DNA of 64,000 nt from Nitrospirales bacterium (GTDB lineage: Bacteria > Nitrospirota > Nitrospiria > Nitrospirales > UBA8639). Numbering within the stretch: position 1 is the stretch's first letter; each line of letters starts with the position of its first letter. The position numbers and the translations under genes are program-made. The notes beneath the pieces were generated by a model. The model did not search any database. It saw only the letters and a program-made list of their open reading frames with translations, and had not been told where the DNA came from. This document shows positions 6,644-54,654 of this stretch, in pieces. The stretch lies in assembly GCA_963555755.3 (NCBI GenBank), contig OY820905.2, forward strand, positions 1,632,001 to 1,696,000. Direction: 5' to 3'.

Positions 6644-7498
6644 TTGCGTCACTCAACACCCCTCGATGAGGATCACCTCATGAATCATCCACCTATGTCA
6701 TCACACCTGAATCTGGATGGGTATTTTGGGTTGCGAGAAGTCTGGCGATGCCGAAGTCTTTTCCACATTCTCGTAATGAGGGATCTGAAAATCAAATACC
6801 AGCGGTCTCCCCTTGGGTTTCTTTGGACGTTGCTGAACCCCTTATGTACTTCCCTCATTTTGATCACGGTCTTTACTTATATTATCAAAGTGCCAGTTGA
6901 CCATTATTGGGCCTTCCTGCTGAGCGGGTATTTTGTCTGGAATTTTATGCACCAGGTGCTCCTTCAATCCACGAATTTGTTGAGAGACCATGCCAACCTC
7001 AGGCGTAATATGGCGTTTCCAAGTGAAATTCTTATTTGGAGTGCTGCATTTTCAAGGCTGCTGGAATTTCTGATCGAAATCAGTCTGGTAATAATCGGCC
7101 TGATGGTGTTTCATCATCAGGGCATTCCGACCAGCCTGGTTCTGTTCCCCTTGCTCATTGTTATTCAGATATTTCTCACCGTCGGGTTGATGTACCCCCT
7201 CTCGACGCTCTCAGTTTTTTTCCACGATGTGTCGTATGCGTTGCCAGTTGTTATTTTTACGTTGTTTTATCTCTCTCCCGTATTTTATCCCATAGAAATG
7301 ATCCCGGAGATTGTTCGGCCATACAGTTTTCTCAATCCTTTCTCCGGAATTCTAACCCTGTATCACGCGGTTTTGTACGATGGGCTCTGGCCTTCAATGT
7401 TTTTGCTCAGTTCAGTCTTCGGTAGCGCACTTGTTATTTGTTTGATTGGGTATGCCATCTTTAATCGGTTCAAACATACCTGTGTCGAGATTGCCTGA
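6644..7498 (+). CDS. wzm: ABC-2 polysaccharide exporter permease (Wzm/RfbA-like)
   Basis: RDLKIKYQRSPLGFLWTLLNPL, YLSPVFYP and NPF motifs; about 6 TM helices. Confidence 0.88.
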   Translation: MRHSTPLDEDHLMNHPPMSSHLNLDGYFGLREVWRCRSLFHILVMRDLKIKYQRSPLGFLWTLLNPLCTSLILITVFTYIIKVPVDHYWAFLLSGYFVWNFMHQVLLQSTNLLRDHANLRRNMAFPSEILIWSAAFSRLLEFLIEISLVIIGLMVFHHQGIPTSLVLFPLLIVIQIFLTVGLMYPLSTLSVFFHDVSYALPVVIFTLFYLSPVFYPIEMIPEIVRPYSFLNPFSGILTLYHAVLYDGLWPSMFLLSSVFGSALVICLIGYAIFNRFKHTCVEIA

Positions 7499-10167: not shown

Positions 10168-11880
10168 ATGGCGTTCTCTTCAACGATAGCCAGATCTTGG
10201 TTAGCGAGTCGGTTTAAGAATGAGAGGGCCATTCCTCTCCTCTTAATTGCCATTGTCGTACTGATTTGGATTCCCCGGTTGGATGGTCCTATCGATCTGC
10301 GGTGGGATGCGGGCGTGTACTACATTCTGGGCACTTCAATTGCTCAAGGTGAGGGATATAGGCTTCTCAATGAGCCTGAGGAGATTGAAGCCGTCCAGTA
10401 TCCTCCGCTACTCCCGCTGATTGTTGCGGCGCATCAGTGGCTGCTGGGGACAAGCGATTTCCTGGTGGTCGGACAATGGCTAAGGGTCTTCTATTTCTTC
10501 CTGTACATAGGCGTTTCCGTTTCTGTGTACTGGCTCGCACGGCTCTATTTGACTCCAGGGTATGCCTTCCTTGCAGCGTTTGTGTGCATCCTGGATTTAA
10601 ATATGTATTACCTGTCCAACCTATTGTTTACCGAAATCCCCTTTACGCTCCTGACGACGCTCTTTGTCATTTGGAATCAGAAAAGCGAAAAGTTCGGATA
10701 TGCCATGTTAACCGCAGTAGCAGGGGTGGCAACGTACTTTCTGCGGACGGCAGGGATTGCCCTACTCGCCGCCTGGGTGGTTGAAAGCTTTCTGCACCGC
10801 CGATTTAAACAGATGGCTGTCCGAGCACTGGTGGCACTGATCCCGATCCTGATCTGGCAGGCCCACATTAGTGAAGTGAAATACAGCCAGGAGTACAGGC
10901 AACCCGCATACGAGTATCAACGTGCACCCTACCAGCAACACAACGTTACTTACCTGGAGAATATATCGCTGATCAATCCGTTCAGTCCTGAATTGGGCCA
11001 AGTGACAGCAGAGGAGATGATCAGGCGTATTGCGATGAACGTAATCGCCATTCCGGCGGCGCTGGGAGAAGCCTTGTCGGCCCCGATTTGGTTGTGGACA
11101 TTGTCGCTGAGGGAGGCCTCCAAACTGCCGGGCTTCCCGCTGCTCCCAATGTGGCTGGGCGATATACCGTTGTTGCTTTTCGCGAGCCTGGTGATTGCCG
11201 GAATGATATTGCTGGCGGCCCGCGGAAAGTGGTTCATCCCGCTTTACTTTGCTAGCTCTGTTGTCCTAATCCTTTTGACTCCCTTCCAAGGGCAGTTTAC
11301 ACGTTACTTCACGCCCCTAGCCCCCTTCCTAATCCTTTCCCTATTTTACGCCCTTGCGTGTGTCCAGGAGCGTTGCATCCGATGGTTTGTGGGGCCATGG
11401 AAGAAAGCCGGCCCACTGCTGAGTATTCTGGTTATATCGATAATTTTCCTCGTGGAGGGAGCATCTCTGGCCGCGCTATACAGCAAGCGGCGCTATGCTG
11501 TGAGTTACTATGATGCCCATGGAAATGAGGCGGTGCACCATTTATTTTTTTACTTCCCACCATGGAAAGCATTGGACGCTTCACTGGAATGGTTGCGGCA
11601 GCGGTCCAAGTCCGATGAGGTGATCGCGACGACAGTGCCACACTGGGCTTTTCTGCGTATTGGGCGCAAGGCGGTGTCGCCTCCCATGGTCGTAGGGAGT
11701 GAAAACGTACAGCGGCTGTTGGATTCAGTCCCGGTGAAGTATGTCGTCGTGGACGAATTACACAGTCCGGGCATCAGCCAACGGTACCTCGCGCCCGCGA
11801 TCGAGAAACTTCCGGATTTTTGGAAGCTTGTCTACGTTGCGCCGGAGGGGAAGTCCCAAATCTATGAGCGTATAAAATGA
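10168..11880 (+). CDS. Multi-TM GT-C (ArnT/PMT-like) glycosyltransferase, copy 1
   Basis: WD..YY after TM1, YPPLLP, TE.PF, many TM helices, C-terminal periplasmic domain. Confidence 0.7.
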   Translation: MAFSSTIARSWLASRFKNERAIPLLLIAIVVLIWIPRLDGPIDLRWDAGVYYILGTSIAQGEGYRLLNEPEEIEAVQYPPLLPLIVAAHQWLLGTSDFLVVGQWLRVFYFFLYIGVSVSVYWLARLYLTPGYAFLAAFVCILDLNMYYLSNLLFTEIPFTLLTTLFVIWNQKSEKFGYAMLTAVAGVATYFLRTAGIALLAAWVVESFLHRRFKQMAVRALVALIPILIWQAHISEVKYSQEYRQPAYEYQRAPYQQHNVTYLENISLINPFSPELGQVTAEEMIRRIAMNVIAIPAALGEALSAPIWLWTLSLREASKLPGFPLLPMWLGDIPLLLFASLVIAGMILLAARGKWFIPLYFASSVVLILLTPFQGQFTRYFTPLAPFLILSLFYALACVQERCIRWFVGPWKKAGPLLSILVISIIFLVEGASLAALYSKRRYAVSYYDAHGNEAVHHLFFYFPPWKALDASLEWLRQRSKSDEVIATTVPHWAFLRIGRKAVSPPMVVGSENVQRLLDSVPVKYVVVDELHSPGISQRYLAPAIEKLPDFWKLVYVAPEGKSQIYERIK

Positions 11881-12136: not shown

Positions 12137-13852
12137 ATGGCGTTCTCTTCAACGATAGCCAGATCTTGGTTAGTGAGTCGGTTTAAGAATGAGAGGGCCA
12201 TTCCTCTCCTCTTAATTGCCATTGTCGTACTGATTTGGATTCCCCGGTTGGATGGACCTATCGATCTGCGGTGGGATGGGGGCGTGTACTACATTCTGGG
12301 CACCTCAATTGCTCAAGGTGAGGGATATAGGCTTCTCAATGAGCCTGAGGAGATCGAAGCTGTCCAGTATCCTCCGCTGCTCCCGCTGATCGTTGCGGCG
12401 CATCAGTGGCTGCTGGGGACAAGCGATTTCCTGGTGGTTGGACAATGGCTAAGGATCTTCTATTTCTTCCTGTACATAGGCGTTTCTATTTCTGTGTACT
12501 GGCTCGCACGGCTGTATTTGACTCCAGGGTATGCCTTACTTGCAGCGGTCGTGTGCATCCTGGATTTAAATATGTATTACCTGTCCAACCTATTGTTCGC
12601 GGAACTCCCCTTTACGCTTCTGACGACGCTCTTTGTCATTTTGAATCAGAAAAGCGAAAAGTTTGGATATGCCATGTTAACCGCAGTAGCAGGGGTGGCA
12701 ACGTACTTTCTGCGGACGGCAGGGATTGCCCTACTCGCCGCCTGGGTGGTTGAAAGCTTTCTGCACCGTCGATTTAAACAGATGGCTGTCCGAGCACTGG
12801 TGGCACTGATCCCGATCCTGATCTGGCAGGCACACATTGATGGAGTGCAGTACAGCCCGGAGTACACGCAACCCGCATACGAGTATCAACGTGCACCCTA
12901 CCAGCAACACAACGTTACTTACCTGGAGAATATTTCGCTGATCAAACCGTTCAGTCCTGAATTGGGCCAAGTGACAGCAGAGGAGATGATCAGGCGTATT
13001 GCGATGAACGCGATCGCCATTCCGGAGGCGCTGGGAGGAGCCGTGGCGGCCTCGAATTGGTTGTGGTTTTTGGGGGTGGTGATGGAGGCCTCTGAACTGC
13101 CTGGCTTCCCGCTGCTCCCAACGTGGCTGGACGATGTAACGTCGTTGCTTTTCGCGAGCCTGGTGATTGCCGGAATGATATTGCTGGCGGCCCGCGGAAA
13201 GTGGTTCATCCCGCTTTATTTTGCTAGCTCTGTCGGCCTCATTCTATTGACTCCCTTCCAAGGGCAGTTTACACGTTACTTCACGCCCTTAGCCCCCTTC
13301 CTGATCCTTTCCCTATTTTACGCCCTTGCGTGTGTCCAGGAGCGTTGCCTCCGATGGTTTGTGGGGCCATGGAAGAAAGCCGGCCCACTGCTGAGTATTC
13401 TGGTTATATCGATAATTTTCATCGTGGAGGGAGTATCTCTGGCCGGGACATACAGCAAGCGGCGCTATGCTGTGAGTTACTATGATGCCCATGGGAATGA
13501 GGCGGTACACCATTTATTTTTTTACTTCCCATCATGGAAAGCGCTGGACGCTTCACTGGAATGGTTGCGGCAGCGGTCCAAGCCGGATGAGGTGATCGCG
13601 ACGAGCGTGCCCCACTGGGCTTTTCTGCGTATTGGGCGCAAGGCGGTGTCGCCTCCTATGGTCGTAGGGAGTGAAAACGTACAGCGGTTGTTGGATTCAG
13701 TCCCGGTGAAGTATGTCGTCGTGGACAAATTAGAATGGCCAGATATCAGCCAACGGTACCTCGCGCCCGCGATCGAGAAACTTCCGGATTTTTGGAAGCT
13801 TGTCTACGTTGCGCCGGAGGGGAAGTCCCAAATCTATGAGCGAATACAATGA
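12137..13852 (+). CDS. Multi-TM GT-C (ArnT/PMT-like) glycosyltransferase, copy 2
   Basis: Near-identical paralog of 10168-11880. Confidence 0.7.
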   Translation: MAFSSTIARSWLVSRFKNERAIPLLLIAIVVLIWIPRLDGPIDLRWDGGVYYILGTSIAQGEGYRLLNEPEEIEAVQYPPLLPLIVAAHQWLLGTSDFLVVGQWLRIFYFFLYIGVSISVYWLARLYLTPGYALLAAVVCILDLNMYYLSNLLFAELPFTLLTTLFVILNQKSEKFGYAMLTAVAGVATYFLRTAGIALLAAWVVESFLHRRFKQMAVRALVALIPILIWQAHIDGVQYSPEYTQPAYEYQRAPYQQHNVTYLENISLIKPFSPELGQVTAEEMIRRIAMNAIAIPEALGGAVAASNWLWFLGVVMEASELPGFPLLPTWLDDVTSLLFASLVIAGMILLAARGKWFIPLYFASSVGLILLTPFQGQFTRYFTPLAPFLILSLFYALACVQERCLRWFVGPWKKAGPLLSILVISIIFIVEGVSLAGTYSKRRYAVSYYDAHGNEAVHHLFFYFPSWKALDASLEWLRQRSKPDEVIATSVPHWAFLRIGRKAVSPPMVVGSENVQRLLDSVPVKYVVVDKLEWPDISQRYLAPAIEKLPDFWKLVYVAPEGKSQIYERIQ

Positions 13853-20734: not shown

Positions 20735-20899
20735 CTAAATTCAACGAGACTCTCTCTCTGAATCCGTAGGGTCTGGATAATAGGGTTGGTTTCTGCGGAA
20801 TGGAAAAAACGAAGTGTAGGTTGAGACGTCCAAAGGCTAATAGTCAAAAGGTCCCGACCAAGATATATCAGGCAACATCATGGATCACTCTCGGTTGAG

Positions 20900-22183
20900 A
20901 TGAAGATAGCCCTCCTGTCATTTGAATATCCTGAAGAAACCGGGTTCGGCGGGATCGGTACCTATACCTGGTACCAGGCTCGCGCCTTAGTCAAGCTGGG
21001 GCACGAAGTGCATGTGTTGGCTGGGGCCACCGAGCCAACCGCACTTCGGATGGAAGCACATGATGGGGTTTTTGTGCACCGATATCGGAGCCATGGCTTC
21101 TTTCATCATTTTCCGACACTGCTGAATACGAGGAAATTGCTGAATAAAAACAAATTGGGGTGGACCAGTAATCGTGCAGAAAATGCCCTCAATATGTATC
21201 AGGCCTGGAAGGTGTTAGACCGTGAGCATCATTTTGATGTTGTGGAAATGCCGGAATGCGGGGCCGACGGTGCACTGATTAATCACATCACCTCGGCACG
21301 TACGATTATGAAGTTTCACTCACCGTCGCGCCTGATCATGCCACATTATGACGTGACGGCAACCGACATCGCGCTCTGTTCCTGGTTAGAGAAAATCGGG
21401 ATGTGGGGAGCCCAGGCATTTTCTTCTTGTTCGAAATTCCTTGCCGATGAAGCGCACAAGAAACTTGGGATTCGAGGTCCGATTCAGGTTATTCCCAATG
21501 GGATCGACCTGCAGTTATTCGACACGTCCGCGCGTGTGAATATTAGAAAGAAGTTCGGATTGTCCCCCACTCGGCTAATTATCTTTTTCTCAGGTCGAAT
21601 GGAACCTCGTAAGGGAATTCATCTGTGTAAGGATATTGCCACCTCAATTTTGGAACGATATGAGGTGGACTTTGTGTTTGCCGGACAGGACTTATTCAAT
21701 TACATGTCGGACACATTGCTTCCCTACCTCAAGGGGAGAACGTTGAAAGGGGCCGTGCATTACCTGGGAAAGCTTAACCTCACTGATGTTCGTTCCTTTC
21801 TCACTCAAGCTGATATTTTTCTCCTTCCAAGTCTTTGGGAGAACTGTCCTTATTCATGTCTTGAAGCCATGGCGTCTGGATGTGCCATTGTATGCTCGAA
21901 TCAGGGAGGCCTGCCTGAATTGATTCAGGACGGGCAGAATGGACTCCTCACGCCCAACGAACATGCCCCCTCATATATCGCCAATCTTGAACGATTGATT
22001 GAAGACCAACCCCTTCGTGAACGTTTAGGGGTGGCGGCCAGAAACACGATCGAGGACCGGTACACGGATATACATATTGCCCGCCAGTCTTTGGCGTATT
22101 ACGCAAAGGGTGTATGTCAGGGAATGCCTACCGCGGGAGAGGCCATCGGGACAGATCGTTTAGGAGAAAAGTGTGCAGAATAA
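20900..22183 (+). CDS. Glycosyltransferase family 4
   Basis: GGIGTY, IPNGID, GRMEPRKG, PSLWENCPYSCLEAMA motifs. Confidence 0.9.
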   Translation: MKIALLSFEYPEETGFGGIGTYTWYQARALVKLGHEVHVLAGATEPTALRMEAHDGVFVHRYRSHGFFHHFPTLLNTRKLLNKNKLGWTSNRAENALNMYQAWKVLDREHHFDVVEMPECGADGALINHITSARTIMKFHSPSRLIMPHYDVTATDIALCSWLEKIGMWGAQAFSSCSKFLADEAHKKLGIRGPIQVIPNGIDLQLFDTSARVNIRKKFGLSPTRLIIFFSGRMEPRKGIHLCKDIATSILERYEVDFVFAGQDLFNYMSDTLLPYLKGRTLKGAVHYLGKLNLTDVRSFLTQADIFLLPSLWENCPYSCLEAMASGCAIVCSNQGGLPELIQDGQNGLLTPNEHAPSYIANLERLIEDQPLRERLGVAARNTIEDRYTDIHIARQSLAYYAKGVCQGMPTAGEAIGTDRLGEKCAE

Positions 22184-22242
22184 TGTGGGGGCCATAGCTC
22201 GTTCAATCGTGAGCGAAGAACGAAGACTGAAAGGGTTTTGAA

Positions 22243-25200
22243 ATGGGCAGGCTGTTCATCGAAAAAGAAAATGTAATTCAGCTCGACAAAGAACAGTATG
22301 ACCTTTGGCGGAGCGATGACTTCTCTGGAAAGACTGTGTGCCATGCACCTTTTGTTTCCCTAGATGTTCGTGAATCTGGCGCGGTGCATGCATGCCCCTA
22401 TTCCGAGATGGATTTGGGCCACGTAGGTGGTCAGCCCCTTGAATCGATCTGGAATGGTCCAGGTTTTGGTGAAGTGCGTCACCGCTTTCGGGAATATCGT
22501 GTCAAGGTTGATGAATGTGGTGGTTGTGTCAATTCTTGGAAGGAGGGCGTACCAGGGAAAAGCCCGGCTCTCGTAGAGTTCGATAGCATAAAACCTGCTC
22601 GATGGGGATCTCCGTATGTTCCTCAAATTCTCAGACTCGATCTGCGCGCACCGCTTTCGGCAATGGATACCAAGACGGTGTTTCGATGGTTACCACGGCT
22701 CGCTCGGCTGGATTTGGGTATCTCCTGGCCTCTACCAACCGATTCACTTTTTCGGACACTCATAGATCGGGCGGCCACGCTTCCTGACGGCAAGCGTCCG
22801 AAGATCACATTACAGGTGTTCGAAAACATTCCAGAAGCCAATAACATTCCCCACGGGATTGCGGTCGTCAGACTCAACCTTGCCATGAATGATGAGGATC
22901 TTTCTTCTCATCAGGGTGAGGTATTGGAGGAGCTGGCCCGATCTCTTCAAGCTCGAGGTGCGGAGCTTGTCCTTGAGGTTTCCGTCCATCAGGGAAACTG
23001 GATTCATCTTCGATCCTGGCTCTTGCGCGCGCACACTCTCGGAATCACGCTTGTACCGTTGCTAGCTCCGACATCAGAGAACGCATCACTTGCCACCCTT
23101 GATGGTGATGCACTGGCTTGCCTCCACAGCATCTTTGAGCAGTGGCTGTCTGAACACCCACACGCCACCCAGCTAGGGTCAGCATCCCCAACAAGACATG
23201 CCATGCTTGATCAACTCCGACGGTGGCAGCATGAAGCTGCTGGGCGTCCTCCGCAGCGAACCGTTCTCTCCTTTCCTGGTCCTGACCATTCCATTGTTCA
23301 GGATGAAACAGCGTTGGAACCGTTTCTGGCCGGTTTACTCCGGATCTATTCTGACTTTTCCATCGAGCGTTGGCTGATGGGGCTCACTGAAAGTAAGGGA
23401 TTTGTCGCGAAGGCCCGGCGCCGGCGTTCGTTCCGTCTCGCGGCATGGTGGCTTGGCTGTGTGTTCGACCGTGCCGAGGTTCTTCCACTCCTAGGTCGGG
23501 TCTTTCGGACTCATGAGGAGGCTCGCCGCCTCATTGACAAAGATCGGAACGCTCTGGCTGGTACGATTTGGGAAAGTTGGTTCGATGGCTGGACGAGGCA
23601 GCTATACCTTAATTCCCTGCAGCCGCGGGGACGACGCTTTGATGTTGGCGCACCCCGGCGAGAAACTGCGGAAGAAACTGCTCAGATCACCGTGATCATG
23701 GCCTCCTACAATCACCAGGCCTTTATCGGGAAGGCAATCCGTAGTGTCCTGGCCCAGACACGAACCGACTTTCGTCTACTTATAGTCGACGATGCATCAG
23801 TGGATGAAACAGTTAAACAGGCTGAAAAAATCCAGGATCCTCGAATCCTCATTCGTCGAAACTCGAAAAACCTAAGACACGGCCCAAACTTGGCACGGGC
23901 ATTGGAGAACGTCGAAACAGAATATGTGGCCTTCATGGACGCCGATGACCTCTTCCATCCAAAACGTTTAGAACACTGTCTTTCCGCCTTGGAAGAAACT
24001 CCTCGAGGAGCTCTGGTCGCGACGGGCTTGGCTGTAGTCGACAAGGAAGGCCGGTTCTGCTCAACAGCCGACTCCTCCCCAGTCTTTGAGGGTTTGAAGA
24101 ATTATAATTGGTTGCGTTTCTATGAAGAGCAGGCCCGCCTGACCAAAACTCCTGCCGATTTTCTGGGAAACCTCTTGGAAGGGAATTCGCTAATTACGAC
24201 TTCAAATCTCGTGGCACGTACGGAGTTTCTCAGGCGCCACCAAAGTCAGTGGCAGCGTCTCGAGTTCTGCGTAGACTGGCAGCTTTTTTTGGCTGCGGCC
24301 TTAGAAAACAGATTGTGCTATGTGCCAGAAACCTTGTTGGGATACAGGCTCCACCCATCCAATTTTAAGTGGACCCACTGTTTCGATAAGGGGTCCAACT
24401 GGCACTACTACTTGGAGTACAACCAGGTTGTCGCAAGGACACTGGGTCATCTACTCCAAAGGTCCGACGGGTCGGATGCCAAGGGATTCACCACTGTTTT
24501 GAGTGCCCTGACTGACCACTTGAACTCAAACACGTCCATGGATTGGCCTGGGGTGGTATTAGGGTTCCTGTTGGAACGTTTGGGCTTGTCACCCCGTGAC
24601 CTAAAAAGCGATTCAGTGGCCGACCGTGTCCAAGCACTGATTCAAGCCCGAGACTTTCGTTTGCAGACAAGGTTTTGGCCCCCAGATTACGTGGACGATA
24701 TCGCGGAGCAGTACCGGATGCGAGGAGAAGCACCGTTCCTCCGTTCCCTACGGAACAAGTATGAAGGGCTTCAGAACAGTCATGACCGACTTCAAGGCGA
24801 GGTCACAGGACTGCTGTTTGATCGTGCCAATGCTAAAAAATGGTGGCGCAAGGCCGAGCAGGAGCGTGACCAGGCCCTGGCAATACAGCAAGACCTGCAG
24901 CACCAACTCGGAGGACTGCAGGGGGAGCACGACCAGGCCCTTACGAAACAACAGGGCTTGTCTTGCCAAATTGGGGAACTGCAAGGAGAGATCGAGAAGG
25001 TCCGTGCCTCATGGAAATGCGTGGAGAATGAGCGGGATCAAGCCATACATGACAAGGGCGAACTCTTTCAAGAAATTGGCCTGTCCAAGAAGAAACTCGA
25101 CTGTGTGCATACGCAGTTAGAAGAACGTACCACCGAACGCAATGCCTTATTACATTCCCTGGAATATCGAGGCGGGCAACTCTTGATCCAAGGGTTCCAT

Positions 25201-26637
25201 TGCCGTCCATTGATTCGAGGGGTTGAGTGGATGACCGTGAAGATTCAACGGCATCTGGCTTTCTTGGGCTTAACCCTCGCACGATGGTCATCAGGATGGC
25301 GTCAGGAGAGCTCTAGGGTGTTGGCGACAGTGTGTGCGGCCTTTCCTATTTATTCGCAGACTTTTGTGCATCAGGAACTTTCACAGTTAGCGAAACGTGG
25401 GTTTCAGATACGGCTGATCTATTCATCCCTGCAGTCCAGGGGAAATCTTCATCACCAATTCGACTCTCTCTGGAAACATAAAAGCCGTCTTTCAATATAT
25501 GACAAAATCCATGAACAAGATTTTGACCGATTTCGAAATCAGTTTCCTGAGAAGGTTGAACGACTCATTCATATGGTCGGTGATTCATCCGGTGTCACCC
25601 GAGAGAAATTAATTCGACATCCACATTTCTTGCAGGCCTTTTCGTTTACGCGAATGGCTGAGGTGTACCGTCCTCACTACTTGCATTCGTATTTCTTTTA
25701 TGACCGGTCCTTTATGGCTCTCGTGGCTGGCTATATACTCGATATTCCGCGAGGCATCAGTTGTTATGCCGATCATGTCCTGGATGACTACAAACTCAAG
25801 GTGGTGCCGCTGCACCTTGAATTGTGTGATACGGTGATTGCCACATCTGAACGCATCAAAGCTGAACTCCTTGCGATGGCCCCAAAGACCGATCCGACAC
25901 GTATTGTGGTGAAACCTAATGCCATTGATACGACATGGTTTCCCAGGATTGAATGCCGTGAACCACAAACTGATGAGCCATTCCGGCTCGTATGTGTAAA
26001 TCGAATCGAACCCAAGAAGGGGTTGCTCTATCTCGTCGAAGCTATCCACTCTCTCCGTCAGCGAGGACATCATGTCGAGTTGCATGTGATCGGCACGGCA
26101 GATACAGGGATTCAATCCAGCCAAGATTATAAACACAAGTTAGATGAATGCATCTCTGATTATAATTTGTGGGGTGTGGTTCATCTAGAGGGGCAACAAA
26201 ATCAGGAAGGTGTTCTTCGATTTCTCAACATGTCTCAGGTATTTATTGCCCCATTTATTGAAACAGACTACGGAGATAAAGATGGGATCCCCACAGCCCT
26301 GTTGGAAGCCATGGCCACCGGGTTGCCGGTCGTGGCTACCGATGCAGGTTCCATGGGGGAAGTGATCCAACATGATCGAGAAGGAGACGTCGTTCCACAA
26401 CGTGATAGTCAGGCCCTCGCCGATTCTATTGCACGACTTCTTACTGATCCACAGCGCAGGAAGAAATTGGGACAGGCAGCCGCGGATACTGTGCGGCAGC
26501 GTTTTGATGTGAGCGTATGCGAACACCGCTTTCATGATCGTGTTTTGTCGGTCATTGAATCCAGAGGTCCTAATGGAATGTCGCGGCAATCCCCTGGTTT
26601 CGATTTCCTGCCGAGGTGGATCTCTCGAGTGTCCTAG
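22243..26637 (+). CDS. Multidomain protein: SPASM-like Cys domain + degenerate barrel + GT2 + coiled coil + WcaL-like GT4
   Basis: CHAPF..GAVHACPY..IWNG..CGGC; TVIMASYN, DDASVD, FMDADD; heptad-rich segment at about aa 840-970; PKKG and DGIPTALLEAMA. Confidence 0.8.
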   Translation: MGRLFIEKENVIQLDKEQYDLWRSDDFSGKTVCHAPFVSLDVRESGAVHACPYSEMDLGHVGGQPLESIWNGPGFGEVRHRFREYRVKVDECGGCVNSWKEGVPGKSPALVEFDSIKPARWGSPYVPQILRLDLRAPLSAMDTKTVFRWLPRLARLDLGISWPLPTDSLFRTLIDRAATLPDGKRPKITLQVFENIPEANNIPHGIAVVRLNLAMNDEDLSSHQGEVLEELARSLQARGAELVLEVSVHQGNWIHLRSWLLRAHTLGITLVPLLAPTSENASLATLDGDALACLHSIFEQWLSEHPHATQLGSASPTRHAMLDQLRRWQHEAAGRPPQRTVLSFPGPDHSIVQDETALEPFLAGLLRIYSDFSIERWLMGLTESKGFVAKARRRRSFRLAAWWLGCVFDRAEVLPLLGRVFRTHEEARRLIDKDRNALAGTIWESWFDGWTRQLYLNSLQPRGRRFDVGAPRRETAEETAQITVIMASYNHQAFIGKAIRSVLAQTRTDFRLLIVDDASVDETVKQAEKIQDPRILIRRNSKNLRHGPNLARALENVETEYVAFMDADDLFHPKRLEHCLSALEETPRGALVATGLAVVDKEGRFCSTADSSPVFEGLKNYNWLRFYEEQARLTKTPADFLGNLLEGNSLITTSNLVARTEFLRRHQSQWQRLEFCVDWQLFLAAALENRLCYVPETLLGYRLHPSNFKWTHCFDKGSNWHYYLEYNQVVARTLGHLLQRSDGSDAKGFTTVLSALTDHLNSNTSMDWPGVVLGFLLERLGLSPRDLKSDSVADRVQALIQARDFRLQTRFWPPDYVDDIAEQYRMRGEAPFLRSLRNKYEGLQNSHDRLQGEVTGLLFDRANAKKWWRKAEQERDQALAIQQDLQHQLGGLQGEHDQALTKQQGLSCQIGELQGEIEKVRASWKCVENERDQAIHDKGELFQEIGLSKKKLDCVHTQLEERTTERNALLHSLEYRGGQLLIQGFHCRPLIRGVEWMTVKIQRHLAFLGLTLARWSSGWRQESSRVLATVCAAFPIYSQTFVHQELSQLAKRGFQIRLIYSSLQSRGNLHHQFDSLWKHKSRLSIYDKIHEQDFDRFRNQFPEKVERLIHMVGDSSGVTREKLIRHPHFLQAFSFTRMAEVYRPHYLHSYFFYDRSFMALVAGYILDIPRGISCYADHVLDDYKLKVVPLHLELCDTVIATSERIKAELLAMAPKTDPTRIVVKPNAIDTTWFPRIECREPQTDEPFRLVCVNRIEPKKGLLYLVEAIHSLRQRGHHVELHVIGTADTGIQSSQDYKHKLDECISDYNLWGVVHLEGQQNQEGVLRFLNMSQVFIAPFIETDYGDKDGIPTALLEAMATGLPVVATDAGSMGEVIQHDREGDVVPQRDSQALADSIARLLTDPQRRKKLGQAAADTVRQRFDVSVCEHRFHDRVLSVIESRGPNGMSRQSPGFDFLPRWISRVS

Positions 26638-27461
26638 CCATGATGCACGCCGTTACGGAAACCCTATCTCATCCTTCGAAGACATTCCAAGGACTCCAGA
26701 AACCTGCCCTTGAGTGTCGGAATGTTGTGAAGGAGTATTTTTTATATCAGCAACGAACCACCTCTCTTCGCGAGTGGGTCATTCGAACCCTGTTGCGTCA
26801 TCCAATCCCTGCCGGGCAGTCGTTTTTTACGCTCACGAATTTCAATATGACAGTGTCCAAGGGTGAAAGTGTGGCGCTCATTGGGGATAACGGGTCGGGA
26901 AAAAGTACGGCTTTGCGCCTCATGGCTGGCATCTATCAACCGACGAGCGGATCCATTCACACGTTTGGACGGGTTGGTGTTGTCATGGAACTGGGTGCAG
27001 GCTTTCATATGGAACTCACCGGGGCAGAAAACGTGGAAATTTATGCGGTCTTAATGGGGCTGACTCGAGACCAGTTCGCCTTTCGCTTTCAAGATATCAT
27101 CGAATTCTCGGAACTGAGGGATTACGTGAACATTCCGGTGAAATATTATTCCTCAGGCATGCAGGCTCGATTAGCGTTTTCAGTCGCCATCTGTATCACT
27201 CCAGAAATTTTATTATTGGACGAAGTCTTAGCGGTTGGAGATCAAGGTTTCAGAGAAAAGTGTCTGGATCGTTTGCGAACCTATCATTCAGAAGGTGGAA
27301 CGTTGGTCATCGCCTCCCACAGCTTTGAAATAATTAGGGAGTTATGTTCAAGGGCCGTGTGGCTGGAACAGGGCGTGATCCAAATGGATGGGGAGATTAA
27401 CGAGGTACTTGATGTCTATCAATCGGCAAGCAAGTCACGGATACTGGCCGGCAAAATATAG
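26616..27461 (+). CDS. wzt: Polysaccharide ABC exporter ATPase (Wzt/RfbB-like), no C-terminal carbohydrate-binding domain
   Basis: GDNGSGKST, YSSGMQARLAF, LLLDEVLAVGD motifs. Confidence 0.9.
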   Translation: MDLSSVLAMMHAVTETLSHPSKTFQGLQKPALECRNVVKEYFLYQQRTTSLREWVIRTLLRHPIPAGQSFFTLTNFNMTVSKGESVALIGDNGSGKSTALRLMAGIYQPTSGSIHTFGRVGVVMELGAGFHMELTGAENVEIYAVLMGLTRDQFAFRFQDIIEFSELRDYVNIPVKYYSSGMQARLAFSVAICITPEILLLDEVLAVGDQGFREKCLDRLRTYHSEGGTLVIASHSFEIIRELCSRAVWLEQGVIQMDGEINEVLDVYQSASKSRILAGKI

Positions 27462-27494
27462 GAACAATCGAAAGGTTAAGGATGGTGTGAGACA

Positions 27495-28910
27495 TTGGTG
27501 CAGGGGTTTGCCCCCCAAGATGTTGGAGTTGTATTCCCCATGAACATTCTTCAAGTGATCCACTCGTTCCCTCCCCATAGTCTTGGAGGGTCAGAAATTT
27601 ATACCTACAACCTGTCACGAGAATTGGCGAAGTCTCACGAGATCATGGTTTTTCATGCCATCAACGATCCGAAGGCCGAAGAATATGACATAAAGGTTGG
27701 TTCATGCGATGGCTTCAAAGTTTCGACTATTAACAATACTTTTAAACAGTGCACGTCGTTTGAAACACATTATCGCAATGAGATGATTGCCAAAAAATTT
27801 GGTGAACTACTCGACGAAGTCACCCCCGATATCGTGCACATCGGGCATCTCATTGACCTTTCTGTCACGTTGGTGGACGAAGCAAAGAAGAGAAGCATCC
27901 CTGTCGTATTGACGTTGCATGATTTTTGGTTGTTCTGTCCACTCGGACGACTCCTCAAGGCCGATCTCACGTTGTGCCAGGGACCTCAAATGTCAAAATG
28001 TGCCAAGTGCCTAGCCCCTCAATTGTCTACGACCAAAGGGTTAAGACGTTTGTATCAAGGTATTCAAAAGGTTATTCCAAATTTTAATGAGAGAATAGGG
28101 ATTCGGAAGATTCTGAGTGTGTTGTATCGTCAATATGCCAAAGTCAAAGCTGCTCAAAATAACAATAACTCCGCTCATATTGAAAACAGAGCCTTGGAAA
28201 TCAAGCGAATTTGCTCCTTAGTTGATGTCTTTATTGCTCCGTCAAGGTTTTTGCTGGAGAAATTTGTCGAGTTCGGGATTCCGAAACAGAAACTGGTTTA
28301 TTGTGATTATGGGTTTGATACCTTGCCCTTTAAAGGTGTACCCAAAAAGCACTCGAGGAAAATCCGATTTGGGTATATTGGAACCCTTATTCCTTCCAAA
28401 GGTCTTCATGTTCTCATGGAAGCCTTTCATGCCATTCACGATGAAGATGTCGAGCTTCGTATTCATGGATATTACTCATCCTTCCATCTTGGCTTTGAAG
28501 ACTATCCCAATTCCCTTCGTGCCATGTCCTCAAAACATAATGTGTACTGGGGTGGGAAGTACGACAATACCGATGTGGCCAAATTATTGTCTGAGATCGA
28601 TGTCTTGGTGGTTCCCTCGATTTGGTATGAGAATTCGCCGTTAACGATTCATGAAGCGTTTTTGGCAGGAGTCCCTGTCATTACCTCAAATATCGGTGGT
28701 ATGGCAGAACTAGTGGAAGATGGAGTGAATGGTCTTCATTTTCAGATGGGGAGTGCAGGGGATCTGGCCAGGCAATTACAGCGAGTGATTGATGACCCTG
28801 GACTTCTCACCAAGCTAAGACCGAATGGATCATCGGTGACGTCAATTGAAAGCCATGCGCTGAAAATCGAAACAATCTATAGAGGAGTGAATTGCAGGGA
28901 AACCGTTTAG
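27495..28910 (+). CDS. Glycosyltransferase family 4 (start probably 27540)
   Basis: GGSEIY, TLHDFW, PSKG, PSIWYENSPL..EA motifs. Confidence 0.88.
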   Translation: MVQGFAPQDVGVVFPMNILQVIHSFPPHSLGGSEIYTYNLSRELAKSHEIMVFHAINDPKAEEYDIKVGSCDGFKVSTINNTFKQCTSFETHYRNEMIAKKFGELLDEVTPDIVHIGHLIDLSVTLVDEAKKRSIPVVLTLHDFWLFCPLGRLLKADLTLCQGPQMSKCAKCLAPQLSTTKGLRRLYQGIQKVIPNFNERIGIRKILSVLYRQYAKVKAAQNNNNSAHIENRALEIKRICSLVDVFIAPSRFLLEKFVEFGIPKQKLVYCDYGFDTLPFKGVPKKHSRKIRFGYIGTLIPSKGLHVLMEAFHAIHDEDVELRIHGYYSSFHLGFEDYPNSLRAMSSKHNVYWGGKYDNTDVAKLLSEIDVLVVPSIWYENSPLTIHEAFLAGVPVITSNIGGMAELVEDGVNGLHFQMGSAGDLARQLQRVIDDPGLLTKLRPNGSSVTSIESHALKIETIYRGVNCRETV

Positions 28911-29783: not shown

Positions 29784-30713
29784 CTATTTGTGAGCGGTCT
29801 TATATTTTCCAGAGAAAATTGAGAGAATTCGTGGCGCCCATTTAGGATTCTCACATTTAGTACCGGAGTTTTGCACTGACCGCTCTTCCTGGAGCTCCGC
29901 CTCTGTAGGGGGGCCAGGTAACTCGATATTTAGTCCCAAAACCTCCGCTGCCTGGCGGGTCCGCTCGCGCTCACGATTGTATTCCGTACCGAATTTTCTG
30001 GTGCACTCTTCACGGTAATCGAAGATGCCACCAGTTTTCGTCTCGACCTGCCAGTCGAGCCAGTCCCCCTCGTGTAGGTGATAGTATCTGACGCCATCCA
30101 CTTTTAATGCCTTCGCCAAATACATCAGTGGCATCATGTCCTGTACGCTACTCTTGGTAATCACGAAGGAGAGGGTGATCTGGGTCCTATCACGCCGTGC
30201 CTCAAACCGGTCGACGTAGGTTTTAATGTTGCGGACGATGGGCCAGAAGTGCTTGCCGCGGATCCTCAAGAAGGTTTCAGGAGTGGCAGCATCTATGGAA
30301 AAGTTAATCGAAAGATAATTAGGGTAGTTCGCCAAGGCATCGAGATATTTCGGCGTACAGACTGAGCCGTTAGTGTTAAGGGACAGTCCTACCCCAGCCT
30401 CCGCACATCGGCTGACGATATCAAAGAACTCCGGGTCGATCATGAACTCGCTGATGCCATGAAACGCGAGCGCCTCGGATCTTGGGATCAACTCCAGCAA
30501 TTTTTTCCAGGTATCCCCTTCGTTCTTGGTCCTGGGAATCTGGTTGCCAACCCGATGATCGATGCAGTAGACGCACCGAAAGTTACAAATGTTTGATCTT
30601 GCGATCTGCAAGTTTGGAGGGATAGATTTGACGTTGGCAATGCCGTGGGCGAGCTCCCATTGCGCCTGATACCTATTCTTCTGATTAAGTTTGAGTTTGT
30701 GAACTGACATCAA
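29784..30713 (-). CDS. Radical SAM protein lacking its own SPASM domain
   Basis: CNFRCVYC (CxxxCxxC), NTNG, SIDA..ETF..IRG motifs. Confidence 0.85.
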   Translation of the reverse strand: MMSVHKLKLNQKNRYQAQWELAHGIANVKSIPPNLQIARSNICNFRCVYCIDHRVGNQIPRTKNEGDTWKKLLELIPRSEALAFHGISEFMIDPEFFDIVSRCAEAGVGLSLNTNGSVCTPKYLDALANYPNYLSINFSIDAATPETFLRIRGKHFWPIVRNIKTYVDRFEARRDRTQITLSFVITKSSVQDMMPLMYLAKALKVDGVRYYHLHEGDWLDWQVETKTGGIFDYREECTRKFGTEYNRERERTRQAAEVLGLNIELPGPPTEAELQEERSVQNSGTKCENPKWAPRILSIFSGKYKTAHK

Positions 30714-30907
30714 GTCTTCCTCCGCCGGTTCGAACGTTTGTCAAAACCTTGAGTGTGCCACAAGGCTGATGGTGTATCGTTACATCACAAAGGATGTTGA
30801 AGCAGGGTGAGACGAACGGAGCGTCGTATCTGGACCGAAATGTTTTGTTGGTAAATTCCCGCATGTCATCGAAAGCATTGCGAACAGATTCTTTCTATTG
30901 AGATAGA

Positions 30908-31112
30908 TGCAAAACCCATGCCACCGGCTTTCTCTCATGGCAATAGAAAAGAACACCAAAAACTATTCATATTAGGCTTGGGTTGGAAGAAGGCCAATCC
31001 AATTCAACCCATGGAACAGTCGGAGGGCTTAGAATCTTTTTCGTTGAGAATTTTGACAAAGTGTCGAGATTTCGACAGGAGACAGTCTAGCAGAGGGTTG
31101 CCACTGGAAATG
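30908..31112 (-). promoter_or_regulatory. sigma54 promoter (TGGCATGGGTTTTGCA, 30923-30908) with tandem enhancer-like boxes (31077-31042)
   Basis: Near-consensus -24/-12 facing the radical SAM gene; homologous to 20541-20666. Confidence 0.75.
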
Positions 31113-31299
31113 GGGAAAAAGAACCCTTTTGGGGCAACCAGGCAATTATCGAAGGAGCAGCTCATCGTCAAGATCCCCAGCTCATGTCCCTATGGAATAA
31201 AACGCCCATTCCCATATTCAAGAAAGAGCAATCCATGTCAAATACATGTCCTCCTTAGTTGAAATTTATGTTAATTTTATTCTCAGTGGAGTTTGAACA

Positions 31300-32116
31300 A
31301 TGTCAAAAAAATGTATTAATAACCGGGATGAGTGGCTTAATTGGGGGGTTGGCACGCCAACAGTTAAAAGGCAAGTATGAGCTAACGGGCCTAAATCGAA
31401 GTGAGGTGCCGGGCGTAAAATGCGTTCAGGCCGATCTGTCTGATCTTGAAGCCATTCGCCCGGCCTTTGAAGGCCAGGATGTGGTCATACATTTGGCGGC
31501 CAAATTAGGGGCCGACTTTTCATGGCAGGAGTTTCAGGACACGAACATCGCCGGCAAGTGGCATTGGCGTGTGCTGGCAGGAAATGCCAGGGCGAAGGCA
31601 GGAACAACTCGATTACATGGGTGGTGCCGGTTTTTTGTTTAAATCAATTGATGAAGTTCCGGAAATAATAGGCCAGCCTTACCCAGACGAAATGCGTAAA
31701 CTCGGCCTTGAGAACTCAAAGAAATGCGACGCCGATACCCATAAAAAAATGCTCGTAGAAACGTGGCGCAGGTATTAACGCGGAGCAATCAATCCGAGCC
31801 TGATCAATTCTCGACACCGGATTTTGGATCAAATGAAGCGTTTTTGGCAGGAGTCCCTGTCATTACCTCAAATATCGGTGGTATGGCAGAGCTAGTGGAA
31901 GATGGAGTGAATGGTCTTCATTTTCAGATGGGAAATGCGGCGGATCTGACCAGGCAATTACAACGAATAATCGATGATCCTCCACTGATCGCTCAGCTTA
32001 AGAACAATATTCCACACGTGACGCCAATAGAAAGCCATGCCTTGAAAATAGAAACGATCTATAGAGGTCTTCTTCCTCAAGCGCCAAGACCAAGGGCTCT
32101 GGTTTCCCAAAAATAA
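31300..32116 (+). pseudogene. Chimeric relic: N-terminus of an NAD-dependent epimerase + C-terminus of a GT like 43702-44904 + C-terminus of a GT4 like 27495-28910
   Basis: VLITGMSGLIG fragment (ATG at 31300 is out of frame at an A7 run); CWQEMPGRRQEQL matches CWQELPGRREEQL; 31833-31932 is nearly identical to 28651-28750. Confidence 0.8.
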
Positions 32117-32370
32117 CAATTGGCGTCTATCACTGGCCAACAGTCCTCGTCTTTGGATTGGTATTGGCAATGGATGGTGGTAATTATGAAGGATCATCGG
32201 GGGTTGGATAAAGTTAGGGTTAATGATAGCTGGGAAATCCCAGATCCAAAAGTGAGCACACAAACGAAGGCTGATTACCTTTGGGAGAAACCCGAAATTA
32301 TTTTCGGCCATTAAGCGGGTGCACGATGGCTAAACAAGTGAATTCATAGTATGGATGCAAGCGAAATAGG

Positions 32371-37099: not shown

Positions 37100-38065
37100 G
37101 TGAATTTTTCAACGCTTCTGCACCAGGAGAAAATGTCAATGGCAATTGACGGCATAGGACATTCAGGTGAAGGGGGTATTTCTTCAAAGGCTTCTGAATT
37201 TCATGAGATTTCTGAGGCACATTCTTACGCACAGACCAACATTCAACTGTATAAGCAACTCAAGTCAGTGGGATATTCCTTAGACGAAATCAATCATGTT
37301 CGGAAAGCCTATGATTTAGCAAAAGAACTCTTTGCCTGTTTATATTGTCCTTCTGGTAAAACTTTTCTTGCGCATGTGGTGGGAGTCGGAAGCATTCTCG
37401 GTTCGCTTCGAATATCAAGCAATGTTGTGGCGGCCAGTCTCCTTCATGAAGTCTATGAAAGTGGCGATTTTGGGGAAGGGTGGAGTCTTGATCAGAAAAA
37501 AACTCTAGTGCGAGAGACCGTTGGCCCTAAAACAGAACAGTATATTGGAGAATATCAGGCCTTGGAATGGTCTCGTTCAACCATTCCGGTTATTCGGAAT
37601 AGGATAACTTATCTGAACCCATTTGAACGAGATGTTCTCATGGTTCGTTTATCCAGTGAATTGGAAGACCTTCTCGATGGCGGAATTTTGTTTTGTCCCG
37701 ATGCGGAAACTCGACGACTACATTTTCGTAATCTCGGTCATCTTCATGTCGAAATGGCTGAGTTGTTAGGATATCCCACTTTAGCCGTTGAATTTAATAA
37801 GGCCCTTAAAGAAACATGTGAGGCTACTTCTATTCGGCCCATAATTCCCGATGGAGCCCGAACATCGCCTGCTCCTTTTCGGCTGATTCCACTTCCCTAC
37901 ACCTACCCACCAATAATGGTCATTCGTCACTGCATGGATCATGGAATAAAGCGCCTTGCCAAGACCCTTCGACTCGCGACAATCATGGTATTCGTGATGG
38001 GAACTTATTCTTCGAATATCGCTCACTGGCTTACAACATACTTCCAATCAACCTCTGGCGGATAA
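37100..38065 (+). CDS. Degenerate HD-domain protein (RelA/SpoT-HD-like fold; possibly DUF6817 type), paralog 1
   Basis: YAQT..QL; AY.LA..LF..SGKTF.AH.VG..SIL; AA.LLHEVY. Confidence 0.55.
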   Translation: MNFSTLLHQEKMSMAIDGIGHSGEGGISSKASEFHEISEAHSYAQTNIQLYKQLKSVGYSLDEINHVRKAYDLAKELFACLYCPSGKTFLAHVVGVGSILGSLRISSNVVAASLLHEVYESGDFGEGWSLDQKKTLVRETVGPKTEQYIGEYQALEWSRSTIPVIRNRITYLNPFERDVLMVRLSSELEDLLDGGILFCPDAETRRLHFRNLGHLHVEMAELLGYPTLAVEFNKALKETCEATSIRPIIPDGARTSPAPFRLIPLPYTYPPIMVIRHCMDHGIKRLAKTLRLATIMVFVMGTYSSNIAHWLTTYFQSTSGG

Positions 38066-38066
38066 T

Positions 38067-38879
38067 TTGTCTGTTTACGCCCAGACCTATCTTCAGCTTC
38101 ATCATCAAATTCGGCGAATGGGGAATTCGGAAGGGGACCTCGATTACCTTCGCGGAGCTTATGCATTCGTGATGCAGATATTATCTGGACATGTTCAGGG
38201 CTATGGTAAATCCTTTCTATCACATAATGTGGGGACGGCAAGTATTCTCGCTTCTCTAGGCACCCCTATCCAGGTGGTAGCTGCGGGTCTTATGCACAAT
38301 GTGTACGAAGGCGTGGATTTTGGAGATGGCCACACAGGCATTACCCCCTCCCACCAAAAAACAATAGTCCGAGTAGTAGGCAAGGAAGCCGAAGGGTTTT
38401 TGGCCACATTCAACACGTTGCGGTGGAATCCAGATTTGTATGCTTCTATTCGGGATCATTTAACGGACTATGACCTATTTCAACGGATGACTGTGTTGCT
38501 TCATTTAGCTGATCATCTGGAGCACAATTTGGATAATGGAACCCTGTATTTTCATGATGATGAAAGCGCCGGGCGCAGAAAAAACTATGAAGTCCTCGTT
38601 GAAATGGCGATAATTCTGGGGTATCCAGTATTAGGAAATGAGATTCAACGGGTGCATCAGGAGCATGAGGGTATCCAGATTCCTGTCGAATTCAAACCTC
38701 TCCACACCCCAGCATATAGAAAGAGAATTGTGCCAAAATCTTGCCGTAGGCGTTATGATCTGCAATTGAAGGGAGCGGTCGCCCCCTGCCTTCATCGGCT
38801 TCAACAGGGAACTGCTTCACTGTATGGCGAAATTCGACCGACGCTAAAGACCGTCAGAAATTGGTTCATGCCCATTTAG
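38067..38879 (+). CDS. Degenerate HD-domain protein, paralog 2
   Basis: YAQT..QL; GKSFLSH.VGTASIL; AAGLMHNVY; LADHLE. Confidence 0.55.
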   Translation: MSVYAQTYLQLHHQIRRMGNSEGDLDYLRGAYAFVMQILSGHVQGYGKSFLSHNVGTASILASLGTPIQVVAAGLMHNVYEGVDFGDGHTGITPSHQKTIVRVVGKEAEGFLATFNTLRWNPDLYASIRDHLTDYDLFQRMTVLLHLADHLEHNLDNGTLYFHDDESAGRRKNYEVLVEMAIILGYPVLGNEIQRVHQEHEGIQIPVEFKPLHTPAYRKRIVPKSCRRRYDLQLKGAVAPCLHRLQQGTASLYGEIRPTLKTVRNWFMPI

Positions 38880-51692: not shown

Positions 51693-53204
51693 TTGAAAGC
51701 TTCAGTCCAAATTATTGAATCCATGATACCTACACTTACGCTAGAACAAGACATTCCAACATGGTCTGATTGTAACATGGGCCACGATCTTCCGGTCTTA
51801 TGTGTTGACCTAGATGGAACATTATTGGCCACCGACACATTCCTGGAATCAACGATCCTGCTTCTTAAACAAAATCCCTTTTTCATTTTACTCCTTCCTC
51901 TCTGGGCCTGGAGAGGGATAGCCTACCTCAAACAACAAGTGACAAAAAGAATTAGGTTGGATGCTTCGTCCTTACCGTATCGACAGGATATCCTCAGCTA
52001 CATCAAACAGGAATTTCATGAGGGCAGAACACTCGTCCTGGCAACAGGTGCCGACCAGCAAGTAGCTGAAGCTGTAGGAAAGCATTTGAATATTTTTTCG
52101 GAAATCATCGCGAGTGACGGCATCAACAATATTGTAGGATCCAACAAACGTCGAGTGCTAGAAGCACGATTCGGATTACGGGGTTTCGATTATATTGGGA
52201 ATGATTCCGCGGATCTCGAGGTTTGGAAAAGCGCACATGGGGCACTTGTCGCATCCTCTTCCAATACCCTTCTTCAACAAACGGCACAACACGTTCCTGT
52301 CCTTCATTTTTTCCCCAAACCCAGACCTTCATTGAGGATCGTCTTGAAGGCACTGCGCATTCATCAATGGATCAAAAACATCCTCATTTTTCTCCCCCTT
52401 GCCGCGGCTCACATGATACTTGAACCGACGCTGTTACTCCCGGCCTGTCTCGCATTCCTATGCTTTAGTATCTGTGCCTCAGGAATTTACCTATTCAATG
52501 ATCTACTTGATCTTCCCGCTGACCGAAAGCATCCCAAGAAAAAAGGGCGCCCCTTTGCATCTGGATCTCTTCCCCTACACGTCGGGTTGCTTGGCCACCC
52601 CCTTCTCATTATAGGAAGTTTCTTTCTTGCCTGGGCGACACTCCCGCCCTCCTTCCTCCATATTTTGCTTCTCTATGCCCTCACGACGATGACATATTCC
52701 ATCTATCTAAAGAAAATGATGATGGTGGATGTCCTGACCTTAGCTGGCCTCTACACGTTGAGAGTGTTGGCAGGTGGAGTCGCGGTTGGGATTTCAGTCT
52801 CGTCCTGGTTACTCGCCTTTTCCCTTTTCTTTTTTCTGAGTCTCGCCTTTGCCAAACGCCATGGCGAACTACAAATCAGAAAGGTTTCGACCTACCAAGG
52901 AATTGAGCGAAGAGCATACATCGGAGGGGACAAAGAAATCTTGGGCACGATGGGAATAATCAGTGGCTACATGTCTGTATTAGTATTGGCCTTATATATC
53001 AATGGGCAAGAAGTCACGTCCTCCTACGAAAATCCGGAGATGCTGTGGTTAACCTGCCCCATACTCCTATACTGGGTAAGCCGCACTTGGCTACTTGCCC
53101 ATCGGGGCAATTTGAATGATGACCCTCTTGTTGTGGCCTTGCGTGACCCACGCAGTTACGTGATTGCTTTGGCGATGGGAATATGCGGAATACTCGCCAT
53201 ATAA
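51693..53204 (+). CDS. HAD + UbiA-family polyprenyl-phosphate phosphoribosyltransferase (NoeC/Rv3806c-like)
   Basis: VDLDGTL; R.HQW.KN; ND..D...DRKHP.K..RP.ASG; KR..E; DDP motifs. Confidence 0.85.
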   Translation: MKASVQIIESMIPTLTLEQDIPTWSDCNMGHDLPVLCVDLDGTLLATDTFLESTILLLKQNPFFILLLPLWAWRGIAYLKQQVTKRIRLDASSLPYRQDILSYIKQEFHEGRTLVLATGADQQVAEAVGKHLNIFSEIIASDGINNIVGSNKRRVLEARFGLRGFDYIGNDSADLEVWKSAHGALVASSSNTLLQQTAQHVPVLHFFPKPRPSLRIVLKALRIHQWIKNILIFLPLAAAHMILEPTLLLPACLAFLCFSICASGIYLFNDLLDLPADRKHPKKKGRPFASGSLPLHVGLLGHPLLIIGSFFLAWATLPPSFLHILLLYALTTMTYSIYLKKMMMVDVLTLAGLYTLRVLAGGVAVGISVSSWLLAFSLFFFLSLAFAKRHGELQIRKVSTYQGIERRAYIGGDKEILGTMGIISGYMSVLVLALYINGQEVTSSYENPEMLWLTCPILLYWVSRTWLLAHRGNLNDDPLVVALRDPRSYVIALAMGICGILAI

Positions 53205-53225
53205 CCAAATGGTGTTGCGAAAAAG

Positions 53226-54641: not shown

Positions 54642-54654
54642 AGAGTTTGTATCC

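Follow-up and report, generated by a model that had tools for sequence, protein, structure and literature searches.

A rare fusion of a degenerate radical-SAM protein with two glycosyltransferases in a Nitrospirales glycan cluster: a possible ruler scaffold

What might a protein that joins a SPASM-type domain, two glycosyltransferases and a coiled coil in a single chain be doing next to the ATPase gene of a glycan exporter? The question is raised by the fusion protein P0001, encoded in a 64,000-nucleotide stretch of Nitrospirales DNA (contig OY820905.2 of assembly GCA_963555755.3, positions 1,632,001 to 1,696,000) that we refer to as the window. An initial annotation of this DNA had described a SPASM-type N-terminus, a family 2 glycosyltransferase (GT2), a coiled coil with ERDQA-like units and a family 4 glycosyltransferase (GT4). 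This outline agrees with heptad analysis and with Pfam, which places SPASM at residues 33-95 (E 3.4e-7, above the cut-off), GT2 at 483-603 and GT4 at 1041-1414. The gene and its predicted parts, in window coordinates, are listed here (aa, amino acids; SAM, S-adenosylmethionine).

22243-26637, + strand: fusion open reading frame (P0001), 1,464 aa
22330-22587, + strand: N-terminal twitch (one-cluster SPASM-type) domain, residues 30-115, from Pfam SPASM and NF033640 positions 2-76
22615-23232, + strand: degenerate radical-SAM partial barrel, residues 125-330, from hhalign (P 98.6, E 9e-16), the structure model and structural matches
23248-23637, + strand: conserved all-helical linker domain matching no known family, residues 336-465, from the model and alignment
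23680-24462, + strand: GT2 (GT-A), residues 480-740, from Pfam and the motifs DD516-517, xDD568-569 and CxDW676-679
24463-24738, + strand: helical cap linking GT2 to the stalk, residues 741-832, from the alignment
24739-25155, + strand: coiled coil (the stalk), residues 833-971 (139 aa), 20 heptads, about 21 nm, from heptad power
25156-25308, + strand: SxExRxG motif and basic amphipathic segment, residues 972-1022, best hydrophobic moment 0.60 and net charge +5, without shuffle control
25309-26562, + strand: GT4 (GT-B), WcaL/EpsE-like, with R1254, K1259 and D1347-x7-E1355

The gene lies at C1:1654243 of a 4.6-Mb genome that is 99% complete. The single 16S gene of this genome matches Nitrospira probes, as do those of 20 of 40 relatives, which points to a Nitrospirales host. 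The interval 20800-27600 was found without differences on one contig in two of four sequencing runs, and 21713-27284 was recovered in a third run from a different study; the source sample may be among these runs. Full-length homologues from independent sequences, 36-68% identical, cross the domain junctions of the fusion, which is therefore not a chimera. An assembly chimera, which the initial annotation had named as a danger to its reading, is thus ruled out by the run contigs and the junction-spanning homologues together. Relatives were also present in marine sediment runs.

When a profile of the N-terminal head was compared with 1.84 billion representatives, 166 matches were obtained at E<=0.001 and 20 at 1e-30. 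The complete twitch-GT2-GT4 arrangement was seen in 11 of the 33 representatives examined, or 12 if P0006 is counted; clustered at 50% identity, the full layout is thus represented at least 12 times. A search of 100 related genomes gave no head apart from one weak match containing stops, and 400 genomes sampled from the phylum gave none; G492, which is absent from both samples, was found through the partner GT4 encoded just upstream of the fusion (GT4b), in one of 250 genomes of the order. A GTDB pattern scan returned a single locus, L001, at which the gene is absent and the match weak (31 aa), and the fusion pattern was not found in viral contigs. No comparable architecture was found in the literature searched, subscription papers and supplements lying outside that search, and in the accessible part of PMC7159879 the fusion architecture is not the subject. 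We conclude that the fusion gene is real and, as the initial annotation had supposed, rare.

The N-terminal domain scores 30.9 bits against PF13186 (threshold 21.5), and C33, C51, C92 and C95 form a predicted four-cysteine [4Fe-4S] site; they are invariant in the rows that cover them in a 29-sequence alignment (21/21, 22/22, 24/24 and 24/24, respectively). The auxiliary-cluster cysteines recognised earlier are therefore present, but as there are ligands for just one cluster the domain is a twitch and not a two-cluster SPASM. The initial annotation had also noted some 350 aa without a CxxxCxxC motif. The motif is indeed absent, here and everywhere else in the 1,464-aa protein, but it had been overlooked that this stretch corresponds to a degenerate radical-SAM barrel followed by the helical domain. 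Residues 15-328 are collinear with a profile of intact N-terminal-twitch radical-SAM proteins, built from the enzyme of locus L008, which also holds a homologue of the fusion, and 64 relatives (a core was obtained from 64 of 87 matches). Against this profile the CxxxCxxC loop is a 25-residue gap in the fusion, the motif being kept in 64/64 extracted intact cores; the SAM-binding GGEP of the intact enzymes aligns to ISWP, so that the GGE motif is lost, and the TNG motif of the intact proteins has gone as well. With the twitch domain removed, the barrel alone still aligned over 94 columns at E 2.4e-5, as against E>=0.096 for 20 shuffles and 0.1 for the reversed sequence. The barrel was missed by single-sequence BLASTP, Pfam and NCBIfam, and the head reaches 28.8 bits against the 170 cut-off of NF033640.

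In an AlphaFold model covering residues 1-476 (pLDDT 83), beta/alpha repeats follow the twitch domain. The 16 best matches of this model among 48,161 chains were all of radical-SAM type, with modest Z scores of 7.6-9.4 (among them BlsE, PqqE, LipA, NifB, viperin and DesII); the best was BlsE (7vob; Z 9.4, root mean square deviation 3.4, 189 aligned). The radical-SAM membership of these proteins is established, and DUF512, also among the matches, is taken to be a radical-SAM family. Foldseek put generic TIM barrels on top, the first radical-SAM protein appearing at rank 32. Judged by profile and model, residues 15-328 are a whole twitch-domain radical-SAM protein from which the catalytic loop of about 25 aa has been deleted, and from its motifs the head is not an active radical-SAM enzyme. 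At residues 116-335 the positions conserved at 75% among the 29 sequences are Pro, Leu, Trp and one Arg; no Asp, Glu, His, Cys or Ser reaches that level, and barrel identity is 24-29% as against 51-60% for GT2 and GT4. Because the twitch cysteines are invariant while the barrel keeps just these residues, we infer that the head is a scaffold rather than a new active site.

Several known proteins resemble the head. NF033640 proteins and their fusions to TPR and glycosyltransferase domains (P0028 of L008, P0135, P0140, P0153, P0154, P0159 and Methylomagnum ishizawai WP_221067113.1) likewise have the twitch before the barrel, are collinear over 15-328 and occur in glycan clusters; the fusion differs from them in its lost motifs and in having the helical domain, GT2 and stalk where those have TPR. 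The GeoRSP SPASM protein (TIGR04304) and the TIGR04347 pseudo-SAM/SPASM proteins are also radical-SAM-derived with auxiliary-cluster cysteines, and presumably lack CxxxCxxC as well; the head has an Atlas match of 0.94 to a GeoRSP SPASM cluster and just 14.5 bits in NCBIfam. Unlike the fusion, these are stand-alone proteins with a C-terminal SPASM and no glycosyltransferase attached. BlsE shares structure with the head and BtrN a four-cysteine auxiliary cluster (PMC9012708). In contrast to both, the fusion has lost the radical cluster, and its twitch stands at the N-terminus, in permuted order.

None of the 33 representative matches examined combines the full architecture with an intact CxxxCxxC; a CxxxCxxC-like string in P0228 was rejected as a catalytic motif, since it sits elsewhere in the barrel. 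Six proteins of a sister architecture (P0233, P0235, P0238, P0240, P0285 and P0296) have an N-terminal GT4 followed by the same helical domain, GT2 and a long linker, and four of the six N-terminal GT4s match GT4b at 32-47%. Because a GT4b-like domain there takes the place of the pseudo-radical-SAM module, the position of the head is modular. Among 92 long proteins of the intact twitch radical-SAM kind, 5 carry a GT2. P0153 is an intact radical-SAM-TPR-GT4-GT2-methyltransferase chain whose GT4 belongs to the subfamily of the fusion and is nested in the GT4 clade of the window (tree of 28 rows, midpoint root), a placement from which we claim no donor. The intact twitch enzyme of L008 matched 0 of 301 genomes. 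As a separate observation, PAS_4 is matched by five intact proteins of the twitch radical-SAM type that are 1,100-1,400 aa long (P0118, P0127, P0137, P0145 and P0160), a sensor-like fusion.

The stalk of the window protein, whose length follows from 1.5 Å per residue, has a heptad power of 0.70 compared with 0.24 in 200 shuffles (p 0.005), with E[RH]DQA units at 874, 895 and 930; the heptad signal likewise reaches p 0.005 in 12 of 14 family spacers. Between conserved anchors the spacer measures 39-473 aa across the family, and the distance from GT2 to GT4 is 139-616 aa in 26 members. P0003 and P0008 differ solely by one 25-aa repeat. In near-identical strains the gene was shorter by 63 nt (3 heptads) in two of four runs and longer by 147 nt (7 heptads) in one of the four, at low depth, with the frame kept in each case; stalk length thus changes by whole heptads between close strains. 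The basic segment that follows the stalk, with a hydrophobic moment of 0.36-0.88 in 16 members (again without shuffle control), is likely, from its sequence, to be a membrane anchor. P0004 terminates past this segment, and L005 and L009 stop at its start.

Both glycosyltransferases look active by their motifs. GT2 scores 102 bits against PF00535, and its DD, xDD and CxDW motifs are conserved in 9/9 aligned members, the family motif NSDD being DADD in the window. GT4 scores 113 bits against PF00534 and retains RIEPKKG and DGIPTALLE; its nearest models, the WcaL and EpsE types, lie far below their cut-offs (TIGR04005, 145.6 bits against 400; NF041876, 94.4 against 537.6). The helical domain gave no Atlas match above 0.78, and the fold search covered it barely.

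This layout recalls the coiled-coil rulers of exported O-polysaccharides. In E. coli O9a WbdD, K. pneumoniae O12 WbbB, O7 ORF6 and O4 ORF7 (PMC11231755, PMC5082667), as is proposed for the fusion, a distal catalytic head sits on a coiled coil of about 20 nm. The order head, coiled coil, amphipathic segment (putative in the fusion) and glycosyltransferase is the same, the C-terminal glycosyltransferase is optional and wzm/wzt are in the cluster (PMC11231755). In the rulers described there, the terminator is always distal and the amphipathic helix and polymerising glycosyltransferases proximal; the WbdD stalk, at about 20 nm, sets modal chain length (PMC5082667). The forms that end past the stalk (P0004, L005, L009) parallel WbdD. 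The fusion is unlike these rulers in that its head is a GT2 with a dead radical-SAM/twitch module, where theirs is a methyltransferase, kinase or Kdo-transferase, and in having a single proximal GT4 and a Wzt without binding module; the likeness is one of layout, sequence homology having been neither tested nor found.

On these analogies we tentatively favour, at a little under even chances, the reading that the fusion is a ruler scaffold, anchored in the membrane, for a surface glycan that Wzm/Wzt would export. The lipid-linked chain would grow on the inner membrane with the help of the other glycosyltransferases of the cluster; there the amphipathic segment and the C-terminal GT4 would lie, and the stalk of about 21 nm would keep the GT2 head at a distance. 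Since the stalk would hold the head away from the membrane, GT2 would act just on chains long enough to reach it, adding a terminal or branching sugar. The twitch module would keep one structural four-cysteine [4Fe-4S] cluster, and the dead radical-SAM/twitch module would be a non-catalytic platform to which the end of the chain, or partners such as GT4b, would bind. The head might descend from a fusion that was once active as a radical-SAM enzyme, with the radical-SAM gene pair nearby now providing that chemistry in trans. The genes and elements around the fusion that bear on this proposal are as follows.

6644-7498, + strand: wzm permease, from library matches; only close copy in the genome
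20520-20760, + strand: non-coding element, copy 1 of 3 in the genome, upstream of the GT4b-fusion operon
20900-22183, + strand: GT4b (partner GT4), directly upstream of the fusion
26640-27461, + strand: wzt ATPase without Wzt_C module (NCBIfam Wzt/RfbE E 1e-61; alternative GTG start at 26616)
27495-28910, + strand: further GT4, with relatives at 28-32% in L004, L006-L008, L010 and L011
28942-29736, - strand: SPASM-Ig, a twitch domain fused to an Ig-like beta-sandwich, 82 homologues
29784-30713, - strand: radical-SAM core with intact CxxxCxxC and without auxiliary domain, from library matches
30918-31104, - strand: non-coding element, copy 2 (75%), upstream of the active radical-SAM operon; a genome repeat
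G000:C1:1629558-1629749, + strand: non-coding element, copy 3, upstream of another glycan operon; a genome repeat

The fusion had been placed directly upstream of wzt, and the wzt ATG (26640) does sit three bases past the fusion stop, with wzm 19 kb upstream of the fusion. This adjacency is not conserved. In five independent well-flanked loci (the window, G492, L004, L008 and L011), wzm/wzt are in the cluster in two, the window and G492, both Nitrospirales; the Wzt of G492 has a Wzt_C domain. GT4b lies directly upstream of the fusion also in L004, L006/7/11 and L008; in G492 it is likewise upstream, but at a distance of 7 kb. A complex prediction of the head (residues 12-465) with GT4b scored 0.00 in two runs and is evidence neither way.

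A number of observations weigh against a ruler. PF14524 (Wzt_C) was found neither in the Wzt of the window nor elsewhere in the 99%-complete genome, and every terminated O-polysaccharide example in the accessible part of PMC11231755 has a Wzt binding module. P0205, the G492 orthologue, adjoins wzm/wzt-Wzt_C and is nearly without a stalk; wzm/wzt are within 10 kb in 0/3 of L004, L008 and L011. The proximal GT4 resembles enzymes of WcaL/EpsE type rather than known polymerases; the C-terminal domain of the sister architecture is divergent and without the DGIPT..E motif; and the heptad signal is not significant in 2 of the 14 spacers (P0005 and P0006). It is because the Wzt module is missing, the P0205 stalk dispensable, the wzt linkage patchy and the GT4 of no known polymerase type that we hold the ruler no higher. 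Of the polymerase/terminator with a ruler proposed initially, the module order and the heptad-step variation of the stalk hold up, and the missing Wzt_C and near-absent stalk in G492 do not fit. We conclude that the scaffold is WbdD/WbbB-like in its layout, and we do not file it as a member of that group because no Wzt module was found and capping is argued by analogy.

The main rival, a realistic one that we hold clearly short of even, is that the stalk serves as a spacer, for oligomerisation or for reach, in a multi-enzyme assembly line that makes a defined, decorated oligosaccharide or glycolipid; GT4 and GT2 would each add one sugar, and chain length would not be measured. The near-stalkless P0205 beside wzm/wzt and the Wzt without Wzt_C are what such a spacer would lead one to expect, as are the WcaL-like GT4 and the wealth of decorating genes in the window cluster (GT-C, SGNH, UbiA/DprE). 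The same GT4 also occurs alone, in M. ishizawai, and within the P0153 chain. However, a spacer leaves unexplained the more than tenfold range of stalk lengths, the heptad-register changes in near-identical strains and the ruler-type order of modules.

A further alternative, which we consider unlikely, is that the pseudo-radical-SAM head acts as a dock for the active radical-SAM/SPASM-Ig pair, whose radical chemistry at the chain end would be the cap, read by an Ig domain that replaces Wzt_C. In 4 of the 5 well-flanked loci the fusion has an intact radical-SAM gene no more than 10 kb away, and SPASM-Ig is likely the partner half of an active, split radical-SAM enzyme; the order of SPASM-Ig and the core-only gene is shared with L007/L011. 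The element of about 220 bp, which has no Rfam match and is likely a shared promoter or leader, precedes both operons, suggesting that the fusion and active radical-SAM operons are co-regulated. The C-terminus of SPASM-Ig has an Ig fold for which the Aquifex Wzt binding domain ranks fifth (Z 8.9, root mean square deviation 2.9, 110 aligned), and it may be a free-standing Wzt-like binding module. However, many unrelated Ig folds score as well as the Wzt domain or better (top Z 10.2, a dextranase), the active partner varies by locus (a split pair, or an intact twitch-TPR enzyme), and L004 has no radical-SAM gene within 10 kb. Similarly improbable in our view is an undescribed class of machine, in which a dead, Fe-S-holding paralogue atop a strain-tunable ruler would read the chain end or present it to a co-regulated active radical-SAM enzyme, a twitch-Ig protein replacing the Wzt module.

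A third alternative, close to the redox sensing first suggested for this protein, is that the [4Fe-4S] cluster kept in the twitch would sense redox state or oxygen and so gate the glycosyltransferases; this seems very unlikely. In its favour, the four cysteines are invariant despite loss of the catalytic loop, but the sister architecture dispenses with the twitch domain. In BtrN the four-cysteine twitch cluster has a full set of ligands and a very low potential, -765 mV (PMC9012708), and because of this precedent the predicted cluster is likelier structural than a sensor. Least probable is a barrel turned new non-radical enzyme acting on the glycan, since its kept fold (pLDDT about 90) and Foldseek likeness to other TIM-barrel enzymes such as O-GlcNAc hydrolase are met by the lack of conserved catalytic-type residues and by its fast divergence.

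Other features of the window concern the glycan cluster and its surroundings. Two tandem membrane proteins (10168-11880 and 12137-13852), 92% identical and without a Pfam match, are GT-C-like by eye. UbiA-HAD, FAD-binding and short-chain dehydrogenase genes are consecutive at 51693-55389, a row that we take to resemble the decaprenyl-phosphoryl-arabinose pathway. The interval 30900-32120 holds fragments of two GT4 genes (80% to that at 27495 and 63% to that at 43705) and an epimerase-like gene, as debris of recent duplication. Tandem HD_4/DUF6817 paralogues, 37% identical, adjoin the cluster at 37100-38879, group II intron domains RF02003 and RF02005 occur at 58294-59066 (- strand), and several IS transposases are spread across the window.

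A split version of the system exists in culture. On plasmid NZ_AP019784.1 of Methylomagnum ishizawai, GT4 (45%), GT4b (47%), an intact twitch radical-SAM protein and wzm/wzt-Wzt_C are separate genes; this cassette (L016, 174629-199591) also has polyprenyl synthetase, AsnB, UbiA and PhyH genes, and PhyH with a GT4-GT2 gene is seen again in G492. Because a cultured organism carries this split, active version, the radical step is testable. With the fusion, the few heads known on coiled-coil rulers would be joined by a pseudoenzyme, and the natural allelic series of the fusion, with stalks from near zero to about 470 aa and steps of 3 and 7 heptads, offers a test of the ruler model beyond the enterobacteria. 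An uncharacterised subfamily of twitch radical-SAM proteins is now tied to the synthesis of surface glycans.

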